DNA of 62,941 bases, filler included. It is 12 parts of 12 records of this genome, joined end to end, with 100 filler letters (N's around TTAATTAATTAA, not from the genome) between each part and the next. Parts side by side here need not be neighbours in the genome. Positions count along the whole stretch, not along the records: positions 54,492 to 57,736 come from SRR15195285_703; 11 more parts are not named here. One strand, written 5' to 3'. Both the position numbers and the translations under genes were made by a program. The notes under the pieces were generated by a model, which did not search any database, was not told the origin of the DNA, and saw only the letters and a program-made list of their open reading frames with translations. Below are positions 4,983 to 62,941 of this stretch, piece by piece; within the stretch, counting starts at the first letter, position 1; every line of letters begins with the position of its first letter.

Positions 4983-5082
4983 NNNNNNNNNNNNNNNNNN
5001 NNNNNNNNNNNNNNNNNNNNNNNNNNTTAATTAATTAANNNNNNNNNNNNNNNNNNNNNNNNNNNNNNNNNNNNNNNNNNNN
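4983..5082. other. Artificial contig-joining spacer
   Basis: N-run + TTAATTAATTAA (stops in all six frames) + N-run, 100 nt. The same design occurs at 11731-11830, 16839-16938, 24361-24460, 27980-28079, 34220-34319, 41042-41141, 45452-45551, 50028-50127, 54392-54491 and 57737-57836. Confidence 0.99.
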
Positions 5083-50458: not shown

Positions 50459-53400
50459 CTAGAGGTACATGCCCAGGTGCTCCACTCGCGTAGTCGTTTG
50501 CAGGAGTAGGAGTTGTTCATCTGCCGGGAGCCCTGCGTCGGCGAGGATGAACGGGACGTGCTTGGACTCCCCTGCCCGCAGGAGAAAGCAATTGTCTGCG
50601 AATCGGCCTTGTGCTTGCGTCGTAAGCGTGACGTACAACGCCGTTGCGCCAGCGCCAGACGCGTCAAGAGTGTTAGTGACGATGACCTGGCCGACAGGCG
50701 ATGCTGCGACCGTCGAGATGGTCACGTTCCCCCCTCGCCCAATGTCCAAGTCCTTAGGTGCCATGTGCAAGCTGATGTGGCTGGATGCAGGCTCGTATGC
50801 TGAGTCCCCTCCACTTGGGGTCAGCACCGAGACGACATAGACATGCTTTGTGTCCATCTTGAATTCCGTCGGCAGTTCGAAGTAGCCAATTGCTCCAGGT
50901 CCTGCCGCCAGTGAAACTGTCGTTGTGAACGTGCTAGCGTTCGCATCTGCTCCGTGTTGTTGAAGTGGCTCCTCTGTGACAACTATACGGAACGGCCCGG
51001 CAGTGCTCTGATCATTCTTAACGTAGCACAAACCATCCTTTCCGCAGGTTGCCATGGCATCGGCAAAGACAGATTGCGCAAAAAAGTGTTGCAACGGCCG
51101 CCAGCGACCGCCGATGACCTGGCCGGCTGTCATCGGCTTCCCATTGCTAGAGACTGTCGTCCCGTACTCGAGGCTGCCCCAACCTCCAGTCTGGGCAAAA
51201 CAAACACATGGCAGTGGTATCAAGAACATACACAGGAGCAGAAGTGGCTTGCAACGCGACATTAGGCGGTCCTCACTGGCCAGATCTCATTCAGTTGCCA
51301 TGTCCATGTTCCAAACGTATTCGACGACCGCCGCGTCTCTATATCTGCCTTCATTTCGATTGCCTGGCCGAGCATGCAGAGGTAGAGCTGCCGCTTGAAA
51401 GCTGCCTCACCTGTCTCGTCAAGGTCAATGCTCGTGCCAAAATACACTATTATTAGTGGATCGCACGGATAATTTCTCTCAGCCATCACGTTCTCCGGTG
51501 CACCGCCCCTGCCCTTGCAGTCACGCCAGAATGCGTTTGTGATGTCGGGCTCGCGGCAGTCAGCCTGCGGTGCACCTCCGTGGACGCCCCAGTGTTCCTC
51601 TGCGAGAGTTGGCGCAATAGATTCGAACGACGAGAACACAGAGCACCCGAATTCTGAGGCAAATGTGTTCGGCTGTGCGACTCCCATTGAATCTGCGTGC
51701 TGGGGGATCGTAATCGGAGTGTTGGCGTCGAACAGCTGCAGTGGTGCCTTTTGTGGAAATGGAGGAGACCGAGGATATGGAGAGATGTTGACGGCCCTGC
51801 GCGCGGAGAAGTATACATTCGAGGTCAGCACAGAGAACAACCGCTTGCAAACAATCACGCCTGCGCGAGCTACTCACATCCAGCCATTGCCGTGATTGTA
51901 CGGTCCGTGAGTTTCCATCGTGTGCGGTTTTGGTGGTGGATGCGGAGTTTTCATGGTGACACACGCAACAACGCCTGCCTTGTGAATCTTGCCTGTGTTG
52001 TCGTATTTCATCCAACATGTTTTGTCGACGAAAACACCAACGACACAGTACTCGTCAGCCCAGCACTGCTCGCAGCAGCTTTCTTTGGTCGCGGCAGTCG
52101 TTGCCTTGCCACCCGCAGGGTTCTGGTACCCAGTATCTTGCTGGAATTGGCATTTAGCCTGTCGCATTCTTGGAGCACCCGCAGCGGTGACAATCATCTC
52201 CATAGGAGCTATCTGTGCAGTGCTAGAGTCTCCGTCTAGTTCAATGATACCACTGTCTAATGCCAGCGTGTCGTCCTCCATGTTTGCTGCCGATGTCAGA
52301 GATCGACCGTTCGGGAGTCCCGTCAGGCGATGTACACCCGTCTTCCAGCCCTTTGACGGACAACCTGGCCAGATCGGACGTGACGCATCCTCCTCTGCGA
52401 CTAGTGTCATGACGAAGCTGACATACAAGCCAGCCGCCGAGCATTCGTTGCACGAGTTCCAGACTGCGATTGATGGGCGATGTGCAAGTCGACGGATGGC
52501 GTTCTGAAAATGCAGTAAGCAAGCAGCTCAGTGTTGTGGTAAACATCATGCATAGTAGAACGCGACCAGTAGCATGTAGTGCAATGCGGACCTGTAGCTC
52601 GGCCGCCTCTTCCGTCGAGCCTGAAGGCTCGTGCGTCTTCGAGGTCGTCGTGAACATCATATCCTGTTCAATCGCCACCATCAACACGTCAAGATCAACC
52701 TCCACCGTTGCAGCACAGCTGCTCGGACGGATGCTACGCTTGAGGTGGCACCGGAAAGGTCTCACGTGGAACAACAGAACGCCGTATCGGTCTGCTGCTT
52801 CGTAGAATGCCTCGGGTAGAAAAATGCCTCCGCCCCAGACGCGCAGTGTGTTCATATTTGAATCGGCAGCACTCTTGACCAGCGCCGTGTGAGCGTCGGC
52901 GGAGTAGCGCCCTTCAAAATTGTCCATACTGTGCACGTACAACCAGCCATTATATACGAGTTGCTCATGCTCCGACCTAAAGCCAGAGCGCAGTGAAGAG
53001 ACACATACCGGTACATAATTATGTACATGACAGAACTCACGGAATCATGTTGGCACCCTTAGACCAGATGGCTTCACCATTAATCCGCCACATTACACCA
53101 AAAGATCCGCTTCCATCTGCCTCTCGGTCCTTCTCGCGCTCAGTCGCGTCAGTGTCGTTGGTGGTTACCAAGCTCATGACTCGGAACCCAACGCTCCGAG
53201 TGGCCTTAAACTCTCCCGACTCCTGGTCTAGCGTTGCGGTTAGGTTGTACAACGACTGGCTACCTTTGCCGTTGGGCCACCACAGCTTCACCTGCTGCGC
53301 GGTCGCAGACATGTTCAATATCGCCACGGCCACACCTGCTGCTTCCGAAATCTGCGCGGATCCTTCCGCTCCCCATGTGCCCGACACGCGCAGCTTCCCA

Positions 53401-54308
53401 TTTAACCCAGTGGGCGACCATAGATAGACACGCGTTCGCACTGTAAACCCAGCATGCTGCCCGTTGGCTAATCGTGTGATCGGGTGCGGCGCGTTGTAAA
53501 ATATTTCCGGCACGACATCCGTGATGACAGCGCCCTTTGACGCCACTGGGAGGATGTATACGTGCTTGCTAATCCCGAAGCTGAGCGTGTGGTCCTCGTT
53601 TTGATACGTGTTGGAATACGGCCCCCAGTCCCATCCGCCCGAGCAGGCCATGAAGCGCCCATTCGTTGGACGGTCAAACGAAACCTCCAGCGTAGATTCG
53701 AGGGGTAGGTCATTGCCATCGACGTGCGCCAGAATCTGCTTCGCGATCGAAAAGTTGTACTTGACGAACTGGTCCGTCGCCACGCCTACAACTTCGCCGT
53801 TTAGCTTGATTGTCGCGCCCATTTTGATGCCGTCAAAGACCAGCAGGACCTCTCCAGCCGCAGCGGCATGCTCGGCGAGCTGGCTCGTGGCGGGGAGCGT
53901 GCGCGTGTACGTCCACGTTTGGTTCCACAGCGGCACATTCTTCGGATCTTTCCAGTTGAGCTCATAGAGCGGGTCGCCAATCCGCCCCGCCCGCTGCAGA
54001 TCAGTGATCAGATCCCCTGGGACCTCCCCCTCGATCGCCAAAGTCCCGTCCGCGCTGCTCGCTCTCCACTGCCCGTCCAAGCTGATGGCCGGAAGCTGGC
54101 CCGCAATGCGCGGGTCGGCGAGGCCAGCACCGTCGACTGGCCGCGCTAGCAGGAGCAGCGCGCTCGCCAGTGCTACCGACCAGCTGCAGCGAAGCGGAGT
54201 GCCCGCGCACAGCGACCTGCGGGGCCCTCCAGCGTGTCCTGATCCCATCGCCGGCCCGCCCTGCAGAGTGAAGCCGCACAGACCCGTCGCGTCAGACCCG
54301 CCGGCCAT
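50459..54308 (-). CDS. GH2 beta-mannosidase-like glycoside hydrolase with inserted PAN/apple-like module, multi-exon
   Basis: VPGDLITDL, LVFDGIKM, GWDWGP, LWWPNG...LY, KGANMIP, NMNTLRVWGGG, spliced PSIAVWNSCNE (acid/base), FASEFG (nucleophile), WQLNEIWP, WGSLEY and QGRFADN. Confidence 0.9.
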
Positions 54309-54583
54309 GCAGTGCAGGGCGCCGCCGCATGCAGCAACGATCGCAGGTCTTCATACATGTACTTCAAATGCATGTACCCAGGTTGAAATTCNNNNNNNNN
54401 NNNNNNNNNNNNNNNNNNNNNNNNNNNNNNNNNNNTTAATTAATTAANNNNNNNNNNNNNNNNNNNNNNNNNNNNNNNNNNNNNNNNNNNNAGTGGTGGT
54501 GGTGGTGGTGGTGGTGTGTGTATGGGTGTGCTCACGCGCACCTGTGCAATAAAGCAACTTGTGTACAACCTCAACAATTTGCA

Positions 54584-57076
54584 TTAGCTGCTGCCGCTCT
54601 CTCCTCCGTCCTTATCAAGCTGCTGTCGTTTTGTCCAGAAGGCCTGCCATTTCCTGTCGAGCGCCGCATTTCGCCGATGCTTGGTCCCCTTCATGTGTGC
54701 GTCGAATGCGCTTTGGCCCGAGCAGACAATACCACACAGCTCGCACGATGGTTTGGCAGCCCCACTGGTGTTGTCCTCGTAGGCAGGCGAGCGAGAGAAG
54801 TTACTGCTAGGGATGAGCCCGAGGGCATCCAATCTGCCTTGGTGCACAAACGCAAACGAGACCGAGTTTGCAATGGGAAACGACTCGTTTGTTTCGACGT
54901 TCCGTGGGGTGTAGCCCGGATACTGACTGATGTCAAACAGCCACTGCGTCGCGTATACAAGCGATGGCGGCGCCAGCGGCGGCGGCAGCATATCATTGCC
55001 CCTCGAATCTGCTACTGACGTTGCTACGGTTTCCAAACACCCTTCACCTTCAGCAGCAGATTGCGACGCTGCCGACAGTCCAGATTCGCACGGGTGCTTG
55101 CAGAAGAAGCGCATGTCATACTTGTTGTCCGCCTTTGCAGAGATAATCAGCTCACCTTCTGGCTTGAGCACTGCTGCACTACCACGTAGCGTCTCAGCGA
55201 TCAAATGTCGGTTGCGAAGCTCTGCCGGCACAGCCGCCGCCTCGAAATCTGCTTTACTCAGAGTTGCTCCACACAACGGAAACTGGAATGTCACCCTGTC
55301 GAAACCATCGCCCATCCAATCGCTTCCACTGTCCTCAGCAAGCTGGTGCTTGAGCGTGGGCAGTAGGCGTGTGGCATCCACACCGTGGATAACTAGAGCA
55401 CCAAGCGCGCGCAGCTTGGCTAGGTTTTCTAGAACACCAGGCCCATACTTCAAGGCAAGGACTTCCTGAGAATCGAGCGAACTGGCTACCAGGAGTAAAT
55501 TGGCAGCACCTTTAACGTTTGCAGCAGTGGATGGCGCAGGCGATATGCATCCACCACATGCAGTGGCAATCGAGAGAGAGAAGCTGAAGTCGCCGTCACC
55601 AAGGATCAGCCACCTCATGCTGGACTTCTCACTGCGGTCGCTGACTGACGCCACTACTGCAGGGGGTGGCTGTCTCAGAATCGTGGCAGCAGCAGTTGTA
55701 GCAGCAGCGTTGCCAGTGACAGCCACTTGCGGTTGTGGCCTGCCTGACACGTCCGCTGCTATTTCTTTCAGTGCACCTAGCGAAGTAAGAGCAGGCCGGG
55801 CAGAGCTTGAACTGACCGCAGGTTCCACTGCTGCTGCCCGTAGACCGCGGAGGCCGCGGGCCGCCGCAACGGAACTGCTGCTGCTAGATGGCAGGCCACG
55901 TTTGCGGCCCCCGGATCCGATTGCGACAAAATCGACAATTTCGACCACACGCTCACCGACAATCTGAAACTGGATCTCAAGTCCGTCTAGCATGATCTTG
56001 TGATGTGCCGGTGTTTCCGCTGCTGGCGCTCCCTGCCTGGCGCCAGAATCGGTATCTCGCTGACGCTTTACCGTTGAGCGAACATCCCATGCCAAGACCT
56101 CTTCCGCCACAGCACTCACACTCTCTACATCTGGAAGTGTCCGGAGTGCTTTGCCCTGGTTGCGCGCAGCCGCGATAGCGAGCCGCTCGCGTGCTCCGGG
56201 AGCCCATCGCACGGCTGCCATCGCCCCCGCACCTCCAGGCTCGCGCACCCAGTCTGGCACCAGGGCTTCCGGAACAGAGTCGTAGTCCGGAATGTAGGGC
56301 TTAATGTCGAGCACTGGCGTGCCATCGAGCAGATCAAGTCCGGACAGCAGAACACGGCCCTTGACTGGGTCGACTCCTTCGATGCGCGCCGTAGAGAGGC
56401 CGATTGGATTGGGCCGATGTGGGCTGCGCGTGGCGAGAGTACCAACCTTGCGCGACCCTTGGAGCCGCGGTGGCGCAATCTTGGCCTTGAACCGCACAGC
56501 GCTCTGCCCCGTAGCTGTGGTGGCGGTCTTGTCGAGGTTTGTGTTCGCGTGAAAGACGAAGATGATCTGTAGGTGTGTGTATTCGGCCAGGCCATCTGTG
56601 CATCCTGCAGGGTTGATATCGCCACGCAGCTGCAGCCACGCACGCGATGACGGCGAGATTTTCCCCTGACGAGGGCAGCCATTTCTCTCAATAAAGCAGG
56701 AGGCAATTTCGCCGATTGCTTGGTAAGAGAAGGTTGGGAGCTGCTTCGTGCGGCGGCTCGCGCGGCTGGGCATGCCGCCGCTTGCAGGTTTTGAGCGCCG
56801 CTGCGACTTGGCCATGCTGACGTCTGCATCAGGCGGCAGGCTCTGGCAGATCTCTTGGATGCGTTTCTCGGCTCGCGTGCGCCCCGTGCGCTCCTCGTGG
56901 CGCAGCTTCTCAGCCTTGACTCTCGCCTGCTCGCTGCGCGCCAGTTCTGCCGCGATCGATGCCAGCTCTGCTCGGACCCGAGCTTCCTCGGACGCCATCT
57001 GTGCCCAGACCGCGGCCGCAATCGCCACGCCACACGGCAGGCCCAGCCATGCCAGCTGCCACGTGCTGCCACCCAT
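54584..57076 (-). CDS. Fusion protein: TM/coiled-coil + TrmO (TsaA-like tRNA m6t6A37 methyltransferase) + Bmt5/DUF2431-like rRNA uridine-N3 methyltransferase + U1/matrin-type zinc finger
   Basis: TrmO: GCPRQG, IFVFH, KIAPPRL, ATRSPHRPNPIGLS, GLDLLDGTPVLDIKPY. Bmt5-like: LILGDGDFSFSLS, ASSLDS...KY, HGVDATRL, FDRVTFQFP, NRHLI, YPGYTPR. Zinc finger: CELC...AHMKGTKH. One uninterrupted 830-aa ORF. Confidence 0.88.
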   Translation of the reverse strand: MGGSTWQLAWLGLPCGVAIAAAVWAQMASEEARVRAELASIAAELARSEQARVKAEKLRHEERTGRTRAEKRIQEICQSLPPDADVSMAKSQRRSKPASGGMPSRASRRTKQLPTFSYQAIGEIASCFIERNGCPRQGKISPSSRAWLQLRGDINPAGCTDGLAEYTHLQIIFVFHANTNLDKTATTATGQSAVRFKAKIAPPRLQGSRKVGTLATRSPHRPNPIGLSTARIEGVDPVKGRVLLSGLDLLDGTPVLDIKPYIPDYDSVPEALVPDWVREPGGAGAMAAVRWAPGARERLAIAAARNQGKALRTLPDVESVSAVAEEVLAWDVRSTVKRQRDTDSGARQGAPAAETPAHHKIMLDGLEIQFQIVGERVVEIVDFVAIGSGGRKRGLPSSSSSSVAAARGLRGLRAAAVEPAVSSSSARPALTSLGALKEIAADVSGRPQPQVAVTGNAAATTAAATILRQPPPAVVASVSDRSEKSSMRWLILGDGDFSFSLSIATACGGCISPAPSTAANVKGAANLLLVASSLDSQEVLALKYGPGVLENLAKLRALGALVIHGVDATRLLPTLKHQLAEDSGSDWMGDGFDRVTFQFPLCGATLSKADFEAAAVPAELRNRHLIAETLRGSAAVLKPEGELIISAKADNKYDMRFFCKHPCESGLSAASQSAAEGEGCLETVATSVADSRGNDMLPPPLAPPSLVYATQWLFDISQYPGYTPRNVETNESFPIANSVSFAFVHQGRLDALGLIPSSNFSRSPAYEDNTSGAAKPSCELCGIVCSGQSAFDAHMKGTKHRRNAALDRKWQAFWTKRQQLDKDGGESGSS

Positions 57077-57458
57077 GGTGCGCCACCCCGAACGCTACGG
57101 AGACGGGCTGTGCTTCGTGGCTTAGGCTGCTACCCGTCTGGAGAGATCTTCGCGATGAGCTCCACCGTCGGCGTACCCCGCGTACCGGTACTAGCCGCGC
57201 GGACCGATACGATGCGTCGAATGCGCGCGCGCGCGCGCCGCCGCGCCCGCGCGCCGGTATCCTAGATACAGTGCACCGGGGAGTGCACGCTCACCAGTTC
57301 GATAGCTGCCATTCTTTTTGTGCAAAAAGTCCTTGGGCGAAATCGGTGATTATCTCCATTCATTTTCACAGTCAATTCGCTCTGAATGTTGGACAAACGT
57401 TCGACATACAATTATCGGTGTTATTTTATTATACATGTATAATGATTTTGAATGATCA

Positions 57459-57709
57459 GGTGGCGGGAGGCAGGAGACAGAGAGTGGGACGGTAGTGGAC
57501 AAACGGCGGAGAACGGCGAGGCGGCGCAGTCAAGCGCAGGGCAGTGGGAGGAGTACGTGGACAAGTTCATCGAGACGGTCGACATCAACGAGCTCACCGG
57601 CGTTGGGGGGGAGCGCAAGATTTGGGGGGCGGTCAACTTGAAGTTTCCGGATGTTCCGAAGAGCGCGCGTGCCCAGGTGCGCGAGATGGGGGAGCGACTC
57701 GTCGCCTAG
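57459..57709 (+). other. Coding-like orphan exon fragment
   Basis: GC-rich open frame (...WEEYVDKFIETVDINEL...) after an AT-rich tract and a CAG; no clear upstream start. Confidence 0.3.
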
Positions 57710-58040
57710 CTGTTTTGCGCACGAGTGCTAAATTGTNNNNNNNNNNNNNNNNNNNNNNNNNNNNNNNNNNNNNNNNNNNNTTAATTAATTAANNNNNNNN
57801 NNNNNNNNNNNNNNNNNNNNNNNNNNNNNNNNNNNNGGGGGTGGTGGGTGGGGTGGGGGGGCGCAGAAGCCTTTCTGTTCTCCCCGCCGCCCGCAACCCG
57901 CGGGTTGGTGTCTAGCGGAGAAGGGGGGAACGCTCTGATCCAGATTCGAGGGCGCTTCAACGGCGCGCCACGCGGGGGACAGCAGGTTTGGGGCGCAACG
58001 GAACAAAAAAGTGAAGCCGGAGAAGACGCGGGGCAGAAGG

Positions 58041-61000
58041 ATGCTGCGCGGCGCGGCAGGGCTCGTCTTCGCGCTCCTGGTGGGGGAGGTGTCGGGGCAG
58101 GCGTGCGACACCAGCAGCGGATGCTCGGAGCTCTCCCAGGTCTCGGTCGAGCTCGCGGACGGGATCTGGATCTGCGGTAACTCCGACACCACGGGATCAT
58201 GGTCGAGCATCTGGAGCATGTGCAACGAGTGCAACAACTACGCGCTGCCGACGATCTCGTCGCTGTCGTTGCGCATGCAGCCCTCGAACCTGGATTCGTG
58301 GATCGTGCCGTCGGACTGGACCTCCGCCACGACGGAGGCGCGGCGCAACCACTTCGAGTTCGTCATGACGGGCCAGCCCGCCGGCGGGTACTCGGCTGGC
58401 GGCTGGACCTCGGTGCTGAATGCCAACGCGGGGCAGCCGTCGTCGCTGTCGCTCGCGCAGATCCGAATGTCGCGCGGCGTCCGCGACGACACGTGGGTTG
58501 CGCTCACGGACGGCGACGAGGACACGGACATGTCGCGCGGCGACTCGAGCTTCGGCAGCCAGCATCAGCGCCCCTCCGCTGAGTTCGACACGGACGGGCA
58601 GCGCTGGATGAGCATGTGCATAGACGCCTCGGCGTACGAGGGGGCCTACATGTGGAACCACATGTGGCGCAAGACCGTGTGCACGTCTGGGTTGACGATC
58701 GAGCACTCCCCTGTACTGTGCGAGGGTAACCTCGGTGCCGTCTGCACGTACACTTGCAACGACGAATACCACGTGTACGGCTCGCGCGCGATCGAGGGTA
58801 CAGTGGACGACCACTTGCACCAGTGTGTGTACGACGACTCCGGCACGTACGGCATGTTCACCGGCGGTCTGTGCGTGCCGGACGTCTGCGACACATCGTA
58901 CATCCAACACTCCCCCAGCGTTTGCAACGGCACTCCGCTCGAGGAGTGCGACTACACGTGCGACCCTGGGTATGCGCGGAGCGGCACGCACCTCTGCAAC
59001 CTTCAAGGTGTCTTCGAAGGGGGCAGCTGCGAGCCGATCCAGTGCACGCAGGGTCTCACGATCGAGAACTCGGACACCGTTTGCTCCGGTAGCACGGGGG
59101 ACGAATGCGAGTATGAGTGCCTTGACGGCTACATCCCTGCATTGGAGCACGTGTGCCGTCCAGGTGGCCGATTTTTCGGCGGTTTCTGCACCGCTCCGCT
59201 GTCTTGCGACGGCATCGAGTGGGGCCCCAAGAGGAACGACACCTGCGGCGTGTGCGGAGGCGACAACTCTACATGTGCTGGGTGCAGTGGTGAGGTGTAT
59301 AGCCCAGTCCGGTGGGACTCGTGCGGCATCTGCGGCGGCAACTACGTACCGTCTGTTGCCATCAACATGGGTGAGAGCTCAGCTGCGGTCGGCGTGCGCA
59401 GCAGTCAGGAGCTGTCCATTCCGACGACTGCGTTCTGGAACTCGTCGTGCCCAAGCACGTCGGCGCTAAACTTTCAGTGGTCCACAGATGCGACGGTAGC
59501 GAATGGCAAGTTGCTACAACCGCTTGACGAGCGCTCCAGCAGCTCACCGACACTCCGCCTGCCTGCCGGAACACTTGTCGCGGGCGAGGAGATCACGATT
59601 ACAGTTCGAGTCACGGCCGTTGTTGAGCAGCGCGCCGAGGAGGGCACCGCGGTGAGGCACGGCCTGCGGTCCGTGTCGACGCTAGATGAACCTGAGCCTC
59701 CGGTCTCCGTGTGTTTGCTTGACCCGCTGGCTTGTCCACGCGAGCTTGTCCAAATTACCGACTGGGCGGAGACTTCCATCCAAATCAACTGCGTTCGCGA
59801 GCCTGTTCAGGCAGTGATTGCTGGCGGCAACCGGGTCGTTCCTCGCCAAGGAGACGTTCTGTTGGACGCATCAGGTTCCGTGGACCCGCAACTGTCCCCG
59901 GAGCCGTTCTCGTACATGTGGAATTGCACGAAGACCGGCACCGAAGAGGCTTGCCCAGGAATGGGATGGCGATGGGAACCAACGATCCACCCGCCTGATG
60001 ACCCCATCCTTACCGTCCCTGCGGAGGACTTAGAGGCTTCGACATCGTATGATTTCACTGTCACTGTCACGAAGATCGCGGCGGACGGCACCATGCGCAA
60101 CGACACGGCCATGGTAACCATCACTGTTGCGGCTGGCATGGTCCCGTCGGTGAACATCAACCAAAGGGACATTCGCCCGAAGTACAATGCCAACGAGCGA
60201 CTCGTGATCTCTGGTGTAGTGGCATCCAACCTGCTGCCGGACGTACCGCCAAACGAACCTGGGGGCGAAGCAATCGATCTACTATGGCAGGGCTACGGTG
60301 CGAATTCCACAGGGCATTACCTGTCGCTCGACATGTCTGTAGAAGGCTTCTTGTCCACACCTATGACCGCAAGGAACCTCGTGGTGAGTTCTTTCCAGCT
60401 CAGCCCCGGCGACCGATATCGGTTCCGGCTCACTGGTACTGGGTCAGATGGAGACGCCTCTGCCGAAGTAAACATCGTCATGAATCTGTCGCCAGTGAAC
60501 GGCATCTGCCGTGCACGCTGCCGCACCGCGGAGTGCACATCTATGCGCGAGGGCATGGCCATTCGCGATCAATTCACGCTCTCGGCTCTTGACTGGGAGG
60601 ACGAGGATGAAGGCCCCTTGTGGTATCGCTTCGGCTACAACGATCGCACAGGGCAACAGTTCTTCGTCACCGATTTCACTATGTCCGAGGCTGTCGAAGC
60701 TATCGTTCCTGCAGGTGCTGACGACACTATACCTGCATTCTCGGTCTTCGTTACCTGCGACATTCGCGACCTGTACGGTGGAACAGCATCGGACACAGAC
60801 CGCATTACCGTCGTCCCTTACGAAGTCGACGGTAGCCTGGCAGACGCTGCTGGTTCGCGTCTCAACGAGGCCGCCTCTTCCGGTGACACACAACAGCAAT
60901 TCCAGCTCGTGGATGCGTTTGCCAGCACCCTCAACGACGATGGCAACCGCCGCCGCCACTACCGCCGCCGGATGACCGAGGAAGACGTTGCTGACGACGC

Positions 61001-62941
61001 GCAGGGCGCACGTGAGATTCTTGTCGGCACCCTGTCTGACATGACGTCAGCTGGGGCGGTGGTGGGAGCTGCGGGTCGGGTCGCCGCCAGCCTCAGCGCC
61101 GTTTCCTCAAATCCAGGTGAGCTGAGCTCGGATGCCACGGACAAGAGCCTGTCGACGGTGACGAGCATTACGGAGAGCGGAGAGAAAATGGGGGGCGACG
61201 CTGTATCGGGATTTGCCTCCGCGGCAGCCAATTTGTTGTTGTCTTCCAAAGGGCAATTCGAGGAGGCCCGGCGGCGGCGGCGGCTCGCGGAGGGTAACGA
61301 AACGGCAGGCGCATCTGAGCACGACGTGGCAGCAGCCGCCGAACGTGGCAATGCTGTACGCAACATTGTCAGCGCCGTCGCTGTAGGCTCCAACGGCGAC
61401 AAGGTTGCTGGCGAGGCCGCGACCGTGATTTCGACGCCTGCATTCGGTCTGGAAACCACTCGCGAGGCGCCGAGCGACATGGAAGGCAAGGAGCTCGCAG
61501 GTGGCGTCAAAGTTCCCAGCGGGTTCTTGCCCGACGGTTTTGCAGGTGCTGTAGACTCGCAAGTCACCAGCTGGAAAGGGAACGACCACCCGTTTTTTTA
61601 CGCCACGTCCAACAACGAATCCAACCTCACCCTTTCCTCGGAAGTGCAGAGCGTCAGCTTCAACAGCGAGGACGGTGCAGAGATTCCTGTCAACGGCCTG
61701 TATGATCCTTTTGTAGTGAACATCACTGTGCCAAGCGGAATGCTGTGTCCCGTAAACTCGAGTGAAGAGTTTCTGGGCGAGGATGCATGCGAGGAGGAGC
61801 AATACAACTGCAGCTACTTTGATGATGCGACAGGAACTTTCGTCGCTGACGGCGTGGTGCTCAACAAAACGAACTACACGCTTACTTGTGCGTTCTACCA
61901 TTTGACGGACCTCGCTGGTGTTGCCGGGCCGGCTCCGTCGGCCAACAAAATGGATGTCGACAAGCTTTTTAGTGCGGACTTCTTGATGAACAATCCGGTC
62001 GGCTTCGCACTAGCCGTCGGTCTACTGATGCTGCTCATCTACTCGTTCTGGTGGTCCATCAAGGAGTACATCAAGGAGACCAACGAGGAGGGCATCACTG
62101 TCAACAATGCGAGCATGATGCAGACGGAGTTTGCGCTGAACCAGTGCAACTACAAGGTTGACAAGATCAGCTTCAAGCAGCGCGTGATCGTCAAAATCCG
62201 CATGGACTGGGACTGGGGTGGTCTCTTTTTCCCAATGCCCGGCGACCCGAACTCGCGTTCGCAGCGCGCGCTGGTCCTCCTCGCTGCCACACTGTTCACG
62301 CTTGTGTTCGAGATAATGTTCTTCAAGGACCCTGCAGGCTGCATCAACTTCACGGAGGGAGAAGGCAAGCAGCAGGTGGTATACCAGTACGACTGCCTAT
62401 CGGGCTCGAAGGATCCCTCTTTGACAGCAGAGGAGGCGTGGGAGATATGTAACGACGCGTTGAATGGCCGCCTCTTCAGCGTATGTGATCCAATCTGTAA
62501 CCAGTTCCAGGCCAACGGCTACATGGCCGCACTGCTCGCTGCGTTGGTGTCCATCCCATTCTCGAAGTCGATGGGCTATGCATTCGGCTGGCTGCAAGAG
62601 CCATACAGCGCAGTTATCGAGGGCGACGACGCCGCCCCGCCGGGCCGGCTGCAGCGCTGGTGGAACCGGTGCACTCGTGGCAAGGAGTACAAGAGAGAAA
62701 TTGCTGCAATGGAAAAGCATCCAGACGATCGTTCACTGGAAGAGGTCGATCTTCTCTGCAAGCTGATGTCCAAGTGCGAGTTGTTCGACGGCATCATGAG
62801 CCAGCGAGACAGACGAGAGATCGCCCGCGTGCTCACCTACCAGGCTAAGCGCCCGCACACAATCATCTGGGAGCAGGGCGACATGGGCAAGGAAGTCCAC
62901 TCGATTCTTCGTGGGAACGTGACTGTGATGATCAAGGGCCC
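58041..62941 (+). CDS. 3'-truncated polycystin-1/PKDREJ-like receptor (Cys-rich/sushi-like repeats, REJ, GPS, at least 3 TM) with cyclic-nucleotide-binding domain
   Basis: Not in the ORF track because it has no stop before the window end. ATG 58041 begins MLRGAAGLVFALLVGEVSG (signal peptide), and no listed ORF terminates in this frame. Motifs: DTCGVCGGDNSTC; REJ-type LLDASGSVDP...FSYMWNC, NLSPVNGIC and DWEDEDEGPLWYRFGY; GPS CSYFD...LTCAFYHLTDLA; three hydrophobic helices; then CELFDGI...IIWEQGDMGKEVHSILRGNVTV (CNBD). Confidence 0.85.
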   Translation, partial: MLRGAAGLVFALLVGEVSGQACDTSSGCSELSQVSVELADGIWICGNSDTTGSWSSIWSMCNECNNYALPTISSLSLRMQPSNLDSWIVPSDWTSATTEARRNHFEFVMTGQPAGGYSAGGWTSVLNANAGQPSSLSLAQIRMSRGVRDDTWVALTDGDEDTDMSRGDSSFGSQHQRPSAEFDTDGQRWMSMCIDASAYEGAYMWNHMWRKTVCTSGLTIEHSPVLCEGNLGAVCTYTCNDEYHVYGSRAIEGTVDDHLHQCVYDDSGTYGMFTGGLCVPDVCDTSYIQHSPSVCNGTPLEECDYTCDPGYARSGTHLCNLQGVFEGGSCEPIQCTQGLTIENSDTVCSGSTGDECEYECLDGYIPALEHVCRPGGRFFGGFCTAPLSCDGIEWGPKRNDTCGVCGGDNSTCAGCSGEVYSPVRWDSCGICGGNYVPSVAINMGESSAAVGVRSSQELSIPTTAFWNSSCPSTSALNFQWSTDATVANGKLLQPLDERSSSSPTLRLPAGTLVAGEEITITVRVTAVVEQRAEEGTAVRHGLRSVSTLDEPEPPVSVCLLDPLACPRELVQITDWAETSIQINCVREPVQAVIAGGNRVVPRQGDVLLDASGSVDPQLSPEPFSYMWNCTKTGTEEACPGMGWRWEPTIHPPDDPILTVPAEDLEASTSYDFTVTVTKIAADGTMRNDTAMVTITVAAGMVPSVNINQRDIRPKYNANERLVISGVVASNLLPDVPPNEPGGEAIDLLWQGYGANSTGHYLSLDMSVEGFLSTPMTARNLVVSSFQLSPGDRYRFRLTGTGSDGDASAEVNIVMNLSPVNGICRARCRTAECTSMREGMAIRDQFTLSALDWEDEDEGPLWYRFGYNDRTGQQFFVTDFTMSEAVEAIVPAGADDTIPAFSVFVTCDIRDLYGGTASDTDRITVVPYEVDGSLADAAGSRLNEAASSGDTQQQFQLVDAFASTLNDDGNRRRHYRRRMTEEDVADDAQGAREILVGTLSDMTSAGAVVGAAGRVAASLSAVSSNPGELSSDATDKSLSTVTSITESGEKMGGDAVSGFASAAANLLLSSKGQFEEARRRRRLAEGNETAGASEHDVAAAAERGNAVRNIVSAVAVGSNGDKVAGEAATVISTPAFGLETTREAPSDMEGKELAGGVKVPSGFLPDGFAGAVDSQVTSWKGNDHPFFYATSNNESNLTLSSEVQSVSFNSEDGAEIPVNGLYDPFVVNITVPSGMLCPVNSSEEFLGEDACEEEQYNCSYFDDATGTFVADGVVLNKTNYTLTCAFYHLTDLAGVAGPAPSANKMDVDKLFSADFLMNNPVGFALAVGLLMLLIYSFWWSIKEYIKETNEEGITVNNASMMQTEFALNQCNYKVDKISFKQRVIVKIRMDWDWGGLFFPMPGDPNSRSQRALVLLAATLFTLVFEIMFFKDPAGCINFTEGEGKQQVVYQYDCLSGSKDPSLTAEEAWEICNDALNGRLFSVCDPICNQFQANGYMAALLAALVSIPFSKSMGYAFGWLQEPYSAVIEGDDAAPPGRLQRWWNRCTRGKEYKREIAAMEKHPDDRSLEEVDLLCKLMSKCELFDGIMSQRDRREIARVLTYQAKRPHTIIWEQGDMGKEVHSILRGNVTVMIKG

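Follow-up and report, generated by a model that had tools for sequence, protein, structure and literature searches.

TrmO, also classified as TsaA or YaeB, belongs to the class VIII methyltransferases and is represented by E. coli TrmO, human TRMO and the Protein Data Bank (PDB) structures 7btu, 1xqb and 2nv4, which share a beta-barrel with the motifs PRQ, TRSPHRPNPIG and DLLDGTPVLDIKPY, followed by a C-terminal domain with a conserved D-x-R. In the account of the E. coli enzyme, Q25, R92, D125 and K136 are described as residues of the S-adenosylmethionine (AdoMet or SAM) site, and, within the DPRxxY motif, D194 and R196 are called essential (Kimura et al. 2014, PMC4132733). The BMT5-like family (PF10354, formerly DUF2431) is large, with an expansion in plants and further members in animals and bacteria, and includes plant 'HIPP41-like' or At4g26485-like proteins as well as members named 'ferredoxin-fold anticodon-binding domain protein'. 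Its only member with a known substrate is yeast Bmt5, which is described as making 3-methyluridine (m3U) at position 2634 of 25S rRNA and as exclusively nucleolar, acting on pre-60S particles (PMC3950682). Here, a gene is described in which these two kinds of RNA methyltransferase are joined in one protein. It lies in a window of 62,941 nucleotides (nt), meaning the whole stretch of DNA analysed, on its own contig of ~3.2 kb (54492-57736), and its product consists, in order, of a hydrophobic N-terminal helix, a coiled coil, TrmO, a linker, a BMT5-like Rossmann methyltransferase and a matrin/U1-type zinc finger.

The protein resembles each of its described relatives and departs from each of them. 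It has the barrel motifs of TrmO/TsaA/YaeB and the D-x-R of the second domain, with DVRSTV in place of DPRxxY, but unlike the members of that family examined it continues, beyond a linker of ~100 amino acids (aa), with a second whole methyltransferase and a zinc finger. With Bmt5 and PF10354 it shares motif I, S-L-D-S, H-G-V-D-A-T, F-D-R-x-x-F and the class I Rossmann fold; unlike stand-alone PF10354 members, to which it is 24–40% identical, it has QFPL rather than NFPH in motif IV, a variable insert of ~45 aa, a C-terminal finger and a position behind TrmO. The finger has the C-x2-C-x12-H-x5-H spacing of U1-like/matrin C2H2 fingers, which Pfam describes as binding double-stranded RNA; here, a single one is appended to a methyltransferase.

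The gene is one open reading frame (ORF) of 830 aa (P0001) on the minus strand, from the ATG at 57076 to a TAA stop at 54584-54586 (54584..57076), as an earlier note on this DNA had proposed. The stop-free run amounts to 836 codons, compared with a longest run of 310 in 200 shuffles of the same contig, and an in-frame stop stands ~5 codons upstream of the ATG. A Pfam scan returned four matches, every one above its curated cut-off, among them TrmO_N (expect value, E, 7.3e-34) and BMT5-like (PF10354, E 3.3e-24). The scan had been suggested in the earlier note, and the second domain, whose identity with Bmt5/DUF2431 had been left conditional there, thus falls in PF10354; the positions given there agree with the Pfam residues within a few bases (56730-56250 for the TrmO motifs, 55618-54830 for the BMT5-like domain and 54745-54665 for the finger). 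Since AT-richer DNA and a small ORF in divergent orientation (57452-57709, plus strand) precede the ORF, the contig looks genomic, with a fusion gene that has no intron. The gene is real and belongs to a marine protist.

Long ORFs can arise by chance in DNA of this composition, and the joined frame might in principle be an artefact, that is, two adjacent genes or a chimeric assembly read as one ORF through a stop-poor, GC-rich spacer. The 56–59% GC content favors such an explanation, as do the long spurious ORFs on the same contig, such as a 315-aa overlapping frame at 56125-57072, and the lack of sequence conservation in the linker. These points are set against several independent observations. 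In a word-indexed search of 5.8 billion proteins, seven of the 8000 candidates scored had E<=0.001, and six of the seven, P0001 itself included, carry both PF10354 and PF01980; these six are 747–848 aa long and 56–100% identical (56–78% for the other five). The seventh is an Ectocarpus protein with TrmO only. The fused ORF was assembled independently by several sources, as full-length copies in the orthologue clusters trace to JGI, ENA, Logan and EukProt data, in which the contigs concerned reach lengths of 31 kb. An exhaustive search of 1.84 billion representatives gave 6340 matches, and among the best 150 of these, 10 of which were scanned with Pfam, is the 5'-cut P0070 (467 aa, ~45% identity), in which the last 20 residues of TrmO_N are followed by TrmO_C, the linker, the BMT5-like domain and a C-x2-C...H-x5-H finger. 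P0091 is a fragment of the same kind, with BMT5-like domain and finger. The co-occurring architecture that the earlier note had suggested looking for is therefore found in further clusters from independent sources (five at 56–78% identity, and P0070), and the fused arrangement is kept in relatives down to ~45% identity.

The linker itself provides a second line of evidence. It is the Ala/Ser-rich segment noted before (aa 387-486; 55619..55918, minus strand) and is predicted to be disordered, the predicted local distance difference test score (pLDDT) being <50 over aa 392-458. In the six full-length orthologues, only 6/109 of its columns are invariant and 50 have gaps, with 27–49% identity to P0001. 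By comparison, TrmO_N has 125/157 invariant columns (89–98% identity), the BMT5-like core 92/185 (67–87%) and the BMT5-like C-part 29/42, so that the two catalytic domains are 67–98% identical around a linker at 27–49%. Despite this divergence and its indels, all orthologues stay in frame across the linker, six of them full-length and one truncated, and in P0001 it has no stop in frame, compared with five and two in the other two frames.

RNA libraries also cover the linker. Assembled contigs from four marine metatranscriptome runs were mapped onto the fusion contig, and at identities of at least 99% they tile 54531-56536 with three small holes and no joints reported. One contig of 434 nt (X1 record 2) spans 55556-55989, the whole linker and both domain edges, with 0 mismatches. 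The stretches that these runs leave uncovered are 54991-55055, 55312-55420, 55990-56005 and 56537-57222; the holes are not evidence of anything. The two transcripts or the chimeric join at the linker that the earlier note had considered as refuting the fusion are not borne out by this contig. Because independent orthologues, a diverging linker that keeps its frame and an RNA-library contig that crosses it without a joint come together, very little room is left for an artefact of assembly or gene modelling; this explanation is close to refuted, and the fusion is real and conserved as a single gene.

A scan of metagenomes with patterns from the first alignment gave 160 pattern matches, of which none was confirmed, and a scan with P0004 gave 41 loci, all of them TrmO-only relatives, none of which matches aa 480-830 of P0001 at E<=1e-3; the second methyltransferase and the finger were accordingly not seen in these 41 TrmO-bearing loci. 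The fusion was likewise not seen in the named TrmO homologues examined, from Ectocarpus, Platysulcus, Tetraselmis, Coccomyxa, Acrasis, Phalansterium, Salpingoeca, Closterium and Tasmannia. Two candidates for close unfused relatives were set aside. The last ~30 residues of P0071 (351 aa, 58% identical, TrmO only) look like non-coding read-through, which is a reading and not proven, and P0072 ends exactly where motif I begins.

The TrmO half looks intact. The part that matches PF01980 (56261..56731, minus strand) has its Pfam TrmO_N match over aa 133-266 at 116.9 bits against a cut-off of 26.8, covering profile positions 1-116 of 116. In a phmmer search, TrmO of P. aeruginosa (7btu) was matched at E 3.4e-32 over aa 112-334, and H. 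influenzae YaeB, A. fulgidus AF0241 and R. palustris RPA0152 were matched as well. The AlphaFold model of aa 1-480, built on 100 sequences, has a mean pLDDT of 79, with a barrel at about aa 120-270 and a second domain at aa 285-385; within the PF01980 part, pLDDT is >90 over most of the length and dips to 57–74 at aa 181-200. Foldseek places this model with 7btz/7btu at E ~1e-21 and a target template modelling (TM) score of 0.86–0.88 over 272–276 columns, so that both TrmO domains are covered. The C-terminal domain (aa 285-386; 55919..56224, minus strand) contains D331-V-R333, the counterpart of DPRxxY; no TrmO C-terminal-domain family was reported by Pfam in the ORF at E<=1.

The residues of the AdoMet site can be followed in the alignments. 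Judging from motif and spacing, Q137, R217, D248 and K259 would be the equivalents of E. coli Q25, R92, D125 and K136, and D331 and R333 those of D194 and R196. All six are invariant in the six orthologues, and in the 100-sequence alignment R217 is invariant while Q137, D248, K259, D331 and R333 are at least 90% conserved. The complete set of TrmO motifs claimed for this half thus has Pfam, PDB and fold matches behind it, along with the AdoMet-site residues and the D-x-R.

The N-terminal region ahead of the barrel belongs to TrmO rather than to the fusion. A hydrophobic segment at aa 7-25 (57002..57058, minus strand; Kyte-Doolittle mean over 19 residues of 1.57) is a likely membrane anchor, and its hydrophobic character is retained in five of the six aligned orthologues, P0003 starting later. 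It is followed by a long helix or coiled coil at aa 27-80 (56837..56998, minus strand) with an invariant E-R-T-G-R-T-R-A-E at aa 61-70; 25/67 columns of this region are invariant among the orthologues, and the AlphaFold (AF2) model has a single long helix over aa 13-79, with pLDDT of 85–94 over aa 21-80. Both elements had been recognized in the earlier note and are present. Among 38 eukaryotic TrmO homologues inspected, 34 have an ER.GR pattern in the N-terminal helix, and in three of the remaining four a D-R-x-G-R was recognized by eye. In most of the 38, a hydrophobic segment also precedes the helix, its Kyte-Doolittle mean reaching 2.4 at the highest, compared with 1.57 in the fusion protein, and stand-alone proteins of Acrasis, Tetraselmis, Coccomyxa and Phalansterium combine the hydrophobic helix with an E-R-x-G-R-x-x-A-E helix. 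An extra N-terminal domain of ~100 aa, absent from human TRMO, is mentioned in a 2026 paper on Drosophila (PMC12977680). Membrane helix and coiled coil are therefore common in eukaryotic TrmO homologues and not special to the fusion. The suggestion that the protein acts at a membrane is reasonable, but as a property of this class of eukaryotic TrmO it is no novelty of the fusion.

The BMT5-like half occupies aa 487-746 (54839..55618, minus strand). Its Pfam match covers aa 490-723 at 86.5 bits against a cut-off of 24.7, with profile positions 1-165 of 168, and within it lies a variable insert of ~45 aa (aa 660-704; 54965-55099, minus strand) of low model confidence and no conservation. The AF2 model of aa 481-830, built on 37 sequences, has a mean pLDDT of 81 and a predicted TM score (pTM) of 0.80 and displays beta-alpha alternation; the Rossmann domain of Bmt5/DUF2431 type proposed for this half is borne out by this model together with the PF10354 match. 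Foldseek of the C-terminal half gave only generic class I RNA methyltransferases (aTrm4, TrmB, TrmN and 16S A1408) at E ~1e-5 and query TM scores of 0.23–0.35, and a sequence search of the PDB found no solved BMT5-like relative. In the ESM Atlas, only BMT5-like clusters were found, with scores of 0.75–0.76 that count as leads. The stand-alone relatives of aa 480-830 come for the most part from plants ('BMT5-like/HIPP41-like/At4g26485-like' proteins) and from protists, the latter unnamed. As a side observation on this family, a single predicted chain, P0079 of Cuscuta campestris (1921 aa), holds seven BMT5-like domains in tandem (Pfam, 7 stretches, 1118 bits), so that one gene model shows the family extremely expanded.

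Behind the domain, the C2H2 finger of matrin/U1 (zf-met, jaz) type occupies aa 777-801 (54674..54748, minus strand), with C778-x2-C781-x12-H794-x5-H800 followed by a basic helix. It is matched by both zf-met (aa 777-800, E 2.4e-5, 24.9 bits against a cut-off of 21.2) and zf-C2H2_jaz (E 5.3e-5, 23.7 bits against 22.6), in line with the matrin-type finger named in the earlier note. The ligands C778, C781, H794 and H800 are invariant in the six orthologues, and the helices of the finger end appear at residues 308-342 of the C-half model.

In the BMT5-like half, motif I, G-(D/E)-G-D-F-S-F, is present in 34 of the 35 rows that cover it, the fusion protein included (G-D-G-D-F-S-F), and S-L-D-S, H-G-V-D-A-T and F-D-R-x-x-F...G are retained as well, so the half keeps its SAM-binding motifs. 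A G182R mutant of yeast Bmt5 is said to be without activity. Column conservation, the kept motifs and the confident Rossmann model show that the half is under selection. Motif IV, in contrast, departs from the N-F-P-H usual in the family and reads Q598-F-P-L601 (55274..55285, minus strand). All 27 stand-alone rows begin this motif with N and end it with H (24 rows) or C (three rows), while all 10 rows of the fusion clade have QFPL. In class I N-methyltransferases, the motif IV loop contacts or faces the target atom. QFPL can thus be regarded, from the aligned rows, as a clade-defining change of motif IV.

What this change means is where the explanations part. It is unlikely that the BMT5-like half is a catalytically dead accessory module, which would bind SAM, S-adenosylhomocysteine (SAH) or RNA and, with the finger, give TrmO extra affinity for tRNA or regulation. 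The replacement of N by Q and of H by L in a loop that touches the target atom would suit such a module, and TrmO's C-terminal domain is already thought to be an RNA-binding addition, according to the treatment in PMC4132733, which implies that the enzyme recruits such modules. On the other hand, QFPL is itself invariant in 10/10 rows, with F-D-R-x-x-F...G retained around it and full conservation of the SAM-binding motifs, and Q can hydrogen-bond like N; moreover, 50–69% of the domain columns are invariant at 56–78% overall identity, which is tighter than a tether needs.

The reading considered slightly more probable than all other possibilities taken together is that the protein is truly bifunctional as an RNA methyltransferase and that its second module has acquired a new target, probably tRNA. 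In the proposed mechanism, the TrmO half would be an active N6-methyltransferase of N6-threonylcarbamoyladenosine at position 37 (t6A37) of tRNA, making the N6-methyl derivative m6t6A37, and would be held at a membrane surface, probably as a dimer, through the anchor and the coiled coil. The BMT5-like half would bind SAM and would most likely be active as a methyltransferase; it may be delivered to the RNA held by TrmO through the flexible linker and the finger of double-stranded-RNA type, and there it would put a second methyl group on the tRNA instead of doing the nucleolar rRNA job of yeast Bmt5. The clade-specific Q-F-P-L in place of N-F-P-H may have changed the target base or atom. Retargeting is preferred because the fusion clade alone has Q-F-P-L for N-F-P-H, and of the two proposals in the earlier note, that the Bmt5-like domain has been retargeted to a new RNA fits better than that it keeps the rRNA job of Bmt5. 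As to the substrate, tRNA is preferred over 25S rRNA because of the fusion partner, the altered motif IV, and an anchor that contrasts with the nucleolar yeast Bmt5, and also because a BMT5-like relative named 'ferredoxin-fold anticodon-binding domain protein' hints at other tRNA-linked architectures in PF10354. Human FDXACB1 may have an architecture of this kind. A complex prediction of the TrmO part with the BMT5-like part scored 0.00 in two runs, which says nothing either way.

The same evidence bears on the possibility that the protein is a dual tRNA and rRNA enzyme, in which the BMT5-like half still N3-methylates a uridine of large-subunit rRNA and the fusion merely co-expresses two translation-related methyltransferases. 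The PF10354 match (E 3.3e-24) and the kept SAM-binding motifs speak for it, as does the position of yeast Bmt5 as the only PF10354 member with proven function (PMC3950682). The identity to stand-alone BMT5-like proteins is merely 24–40%, however, and motif IV differs from all 27 stand-alone rows. A membrane-anchored protein, with a hydrophobic anchor shared with TrmO homologues, would also be an odd fit for the nucleolar pre-60S site described for yeast Bmt5 in that account. Gene fusions, moreover, unite partners acting on one substrate more often than not, and on balance the dual enzyme is judged improbable.

A bolder form of the tRNA reading treats the fusion as a 'Rosetta stone': the largely uncharacterised BMT5-like family would include tRNA methyltransferases, and the two halves, placed at a membrane, would serve the anticodon arm of one and the same tRNA in tandem. 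This is put forward tentatively, as rather doubtful. Both halves would then act on tRNAs bearing t6A37, with TrmO making m6t6A37 and the QFPL-type Rossmann domain methylating a neighboring base by a chemistry other than the m3U formation of Bmt5, for example at a ring nitrogen for which deprotonation is unnecessary, N3 of cytidine being one. In yeast and mammals, 3-methylcytidine at position 32 (m3C32) of tRNA-Thr and tRNA-Ser depends on t6A37, and a tandem coupling would therefore be sensible.

Several points weigh against the favored reading of a bifunctional enzyme retargeted to tRNA. The target RNA of the BMT5-like half is deduced purely from its fusion to TrmO and from the presence of finger and anchor, and the loss of both N and H from motif IV in the fusion clade could equally mean loss of catalysis. 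The segment at aa 7-25 is only moderately hydrophobic and rich in Ala, and could be a targeting peptide rather than an anchor. In the TrmO half, the C-terminal motif reads D331-V-R333-S-T-V, with V at both the P and the Y of DPRxxY, and the NCBIfam equivalog model TIGR00104 scores 90.4 bits, just below its cut-off of 93.25. The RNA evidence, finally, consists of assembled contigs from metatranscriptome libraries that possibly contain DNA, and the four runs gave no cover over 56537-57222.

No report of a fusion of TrmO with a BMT5-like domain was found in the PMC and bioRxiv literature searched. The combination is unreported but not revolutionary, since both domains and bifunctional RNA-modifying enzymes are already known, and basic concepts are unchanged by it. 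For PF10354, however, a conserved natural fusion to an enzyme of the tRNA anticodon loop suggests a link to tRNA and provides a ready construct for testing, and the change from NFPH to QFPL marks a subfamily with a probably new specificity. In addition, the unstudied membrane helix and E-R-x-G-R-x-x-A-E coiled coil of many eukaryotic TrmO proteins prompt one to ask which part of the cell is the site of m6t6A formation.

Other features of the window are minor. The window consists of 12 separate contigs, strung together at 11 spacers (runs of N around TTAATTAATTAA) located at 5027, 11775, 16883, 24405, 28024, 34264, 41086, 45496, 50072, 54436 and 57781. Since the contigs are separate, adjacency of genes across these points is meaningless, and the window neighbors of the fusion gene are not its genomic neighbors. 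Among the remaining ORFs of the window, none proved to be a marker gene for the protist lineage. On the fusion contig itself, the small ORF of 85 aa (57452-57709, plus strand) points away from the fusion gene, from which ~370 bp of AT-richer DNA separate it, and has no Pfam match; a metatranscriptome contig covers 57494-57702 of this region with two mismatches. At the other end of the contig, just downstream of the stop of the fusion gene, a (GGT)n / (GT)n simple repeat at 54492-54530 was skipped as a repeat in the mapping of read contigs.

The contig before it in the window carries a gene of glycoside hydrolase family 2 (51874-54308, minus strand; Glyco_hydro_2_N2, E 5e-24), apparently split over several frames, which suggests introns, unlike the intron-free fusion gene. 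The contig after it contains an open-ended ORF of 1643 aa (58011-62939, plus strand) with a REJ domain (E 4.8e-48) of polycystin-1/receptor-for-egg-jelly type, in which cysteine-rich repeats, hydrophobic segments and a C-terminal part running off the window are seen by eye.

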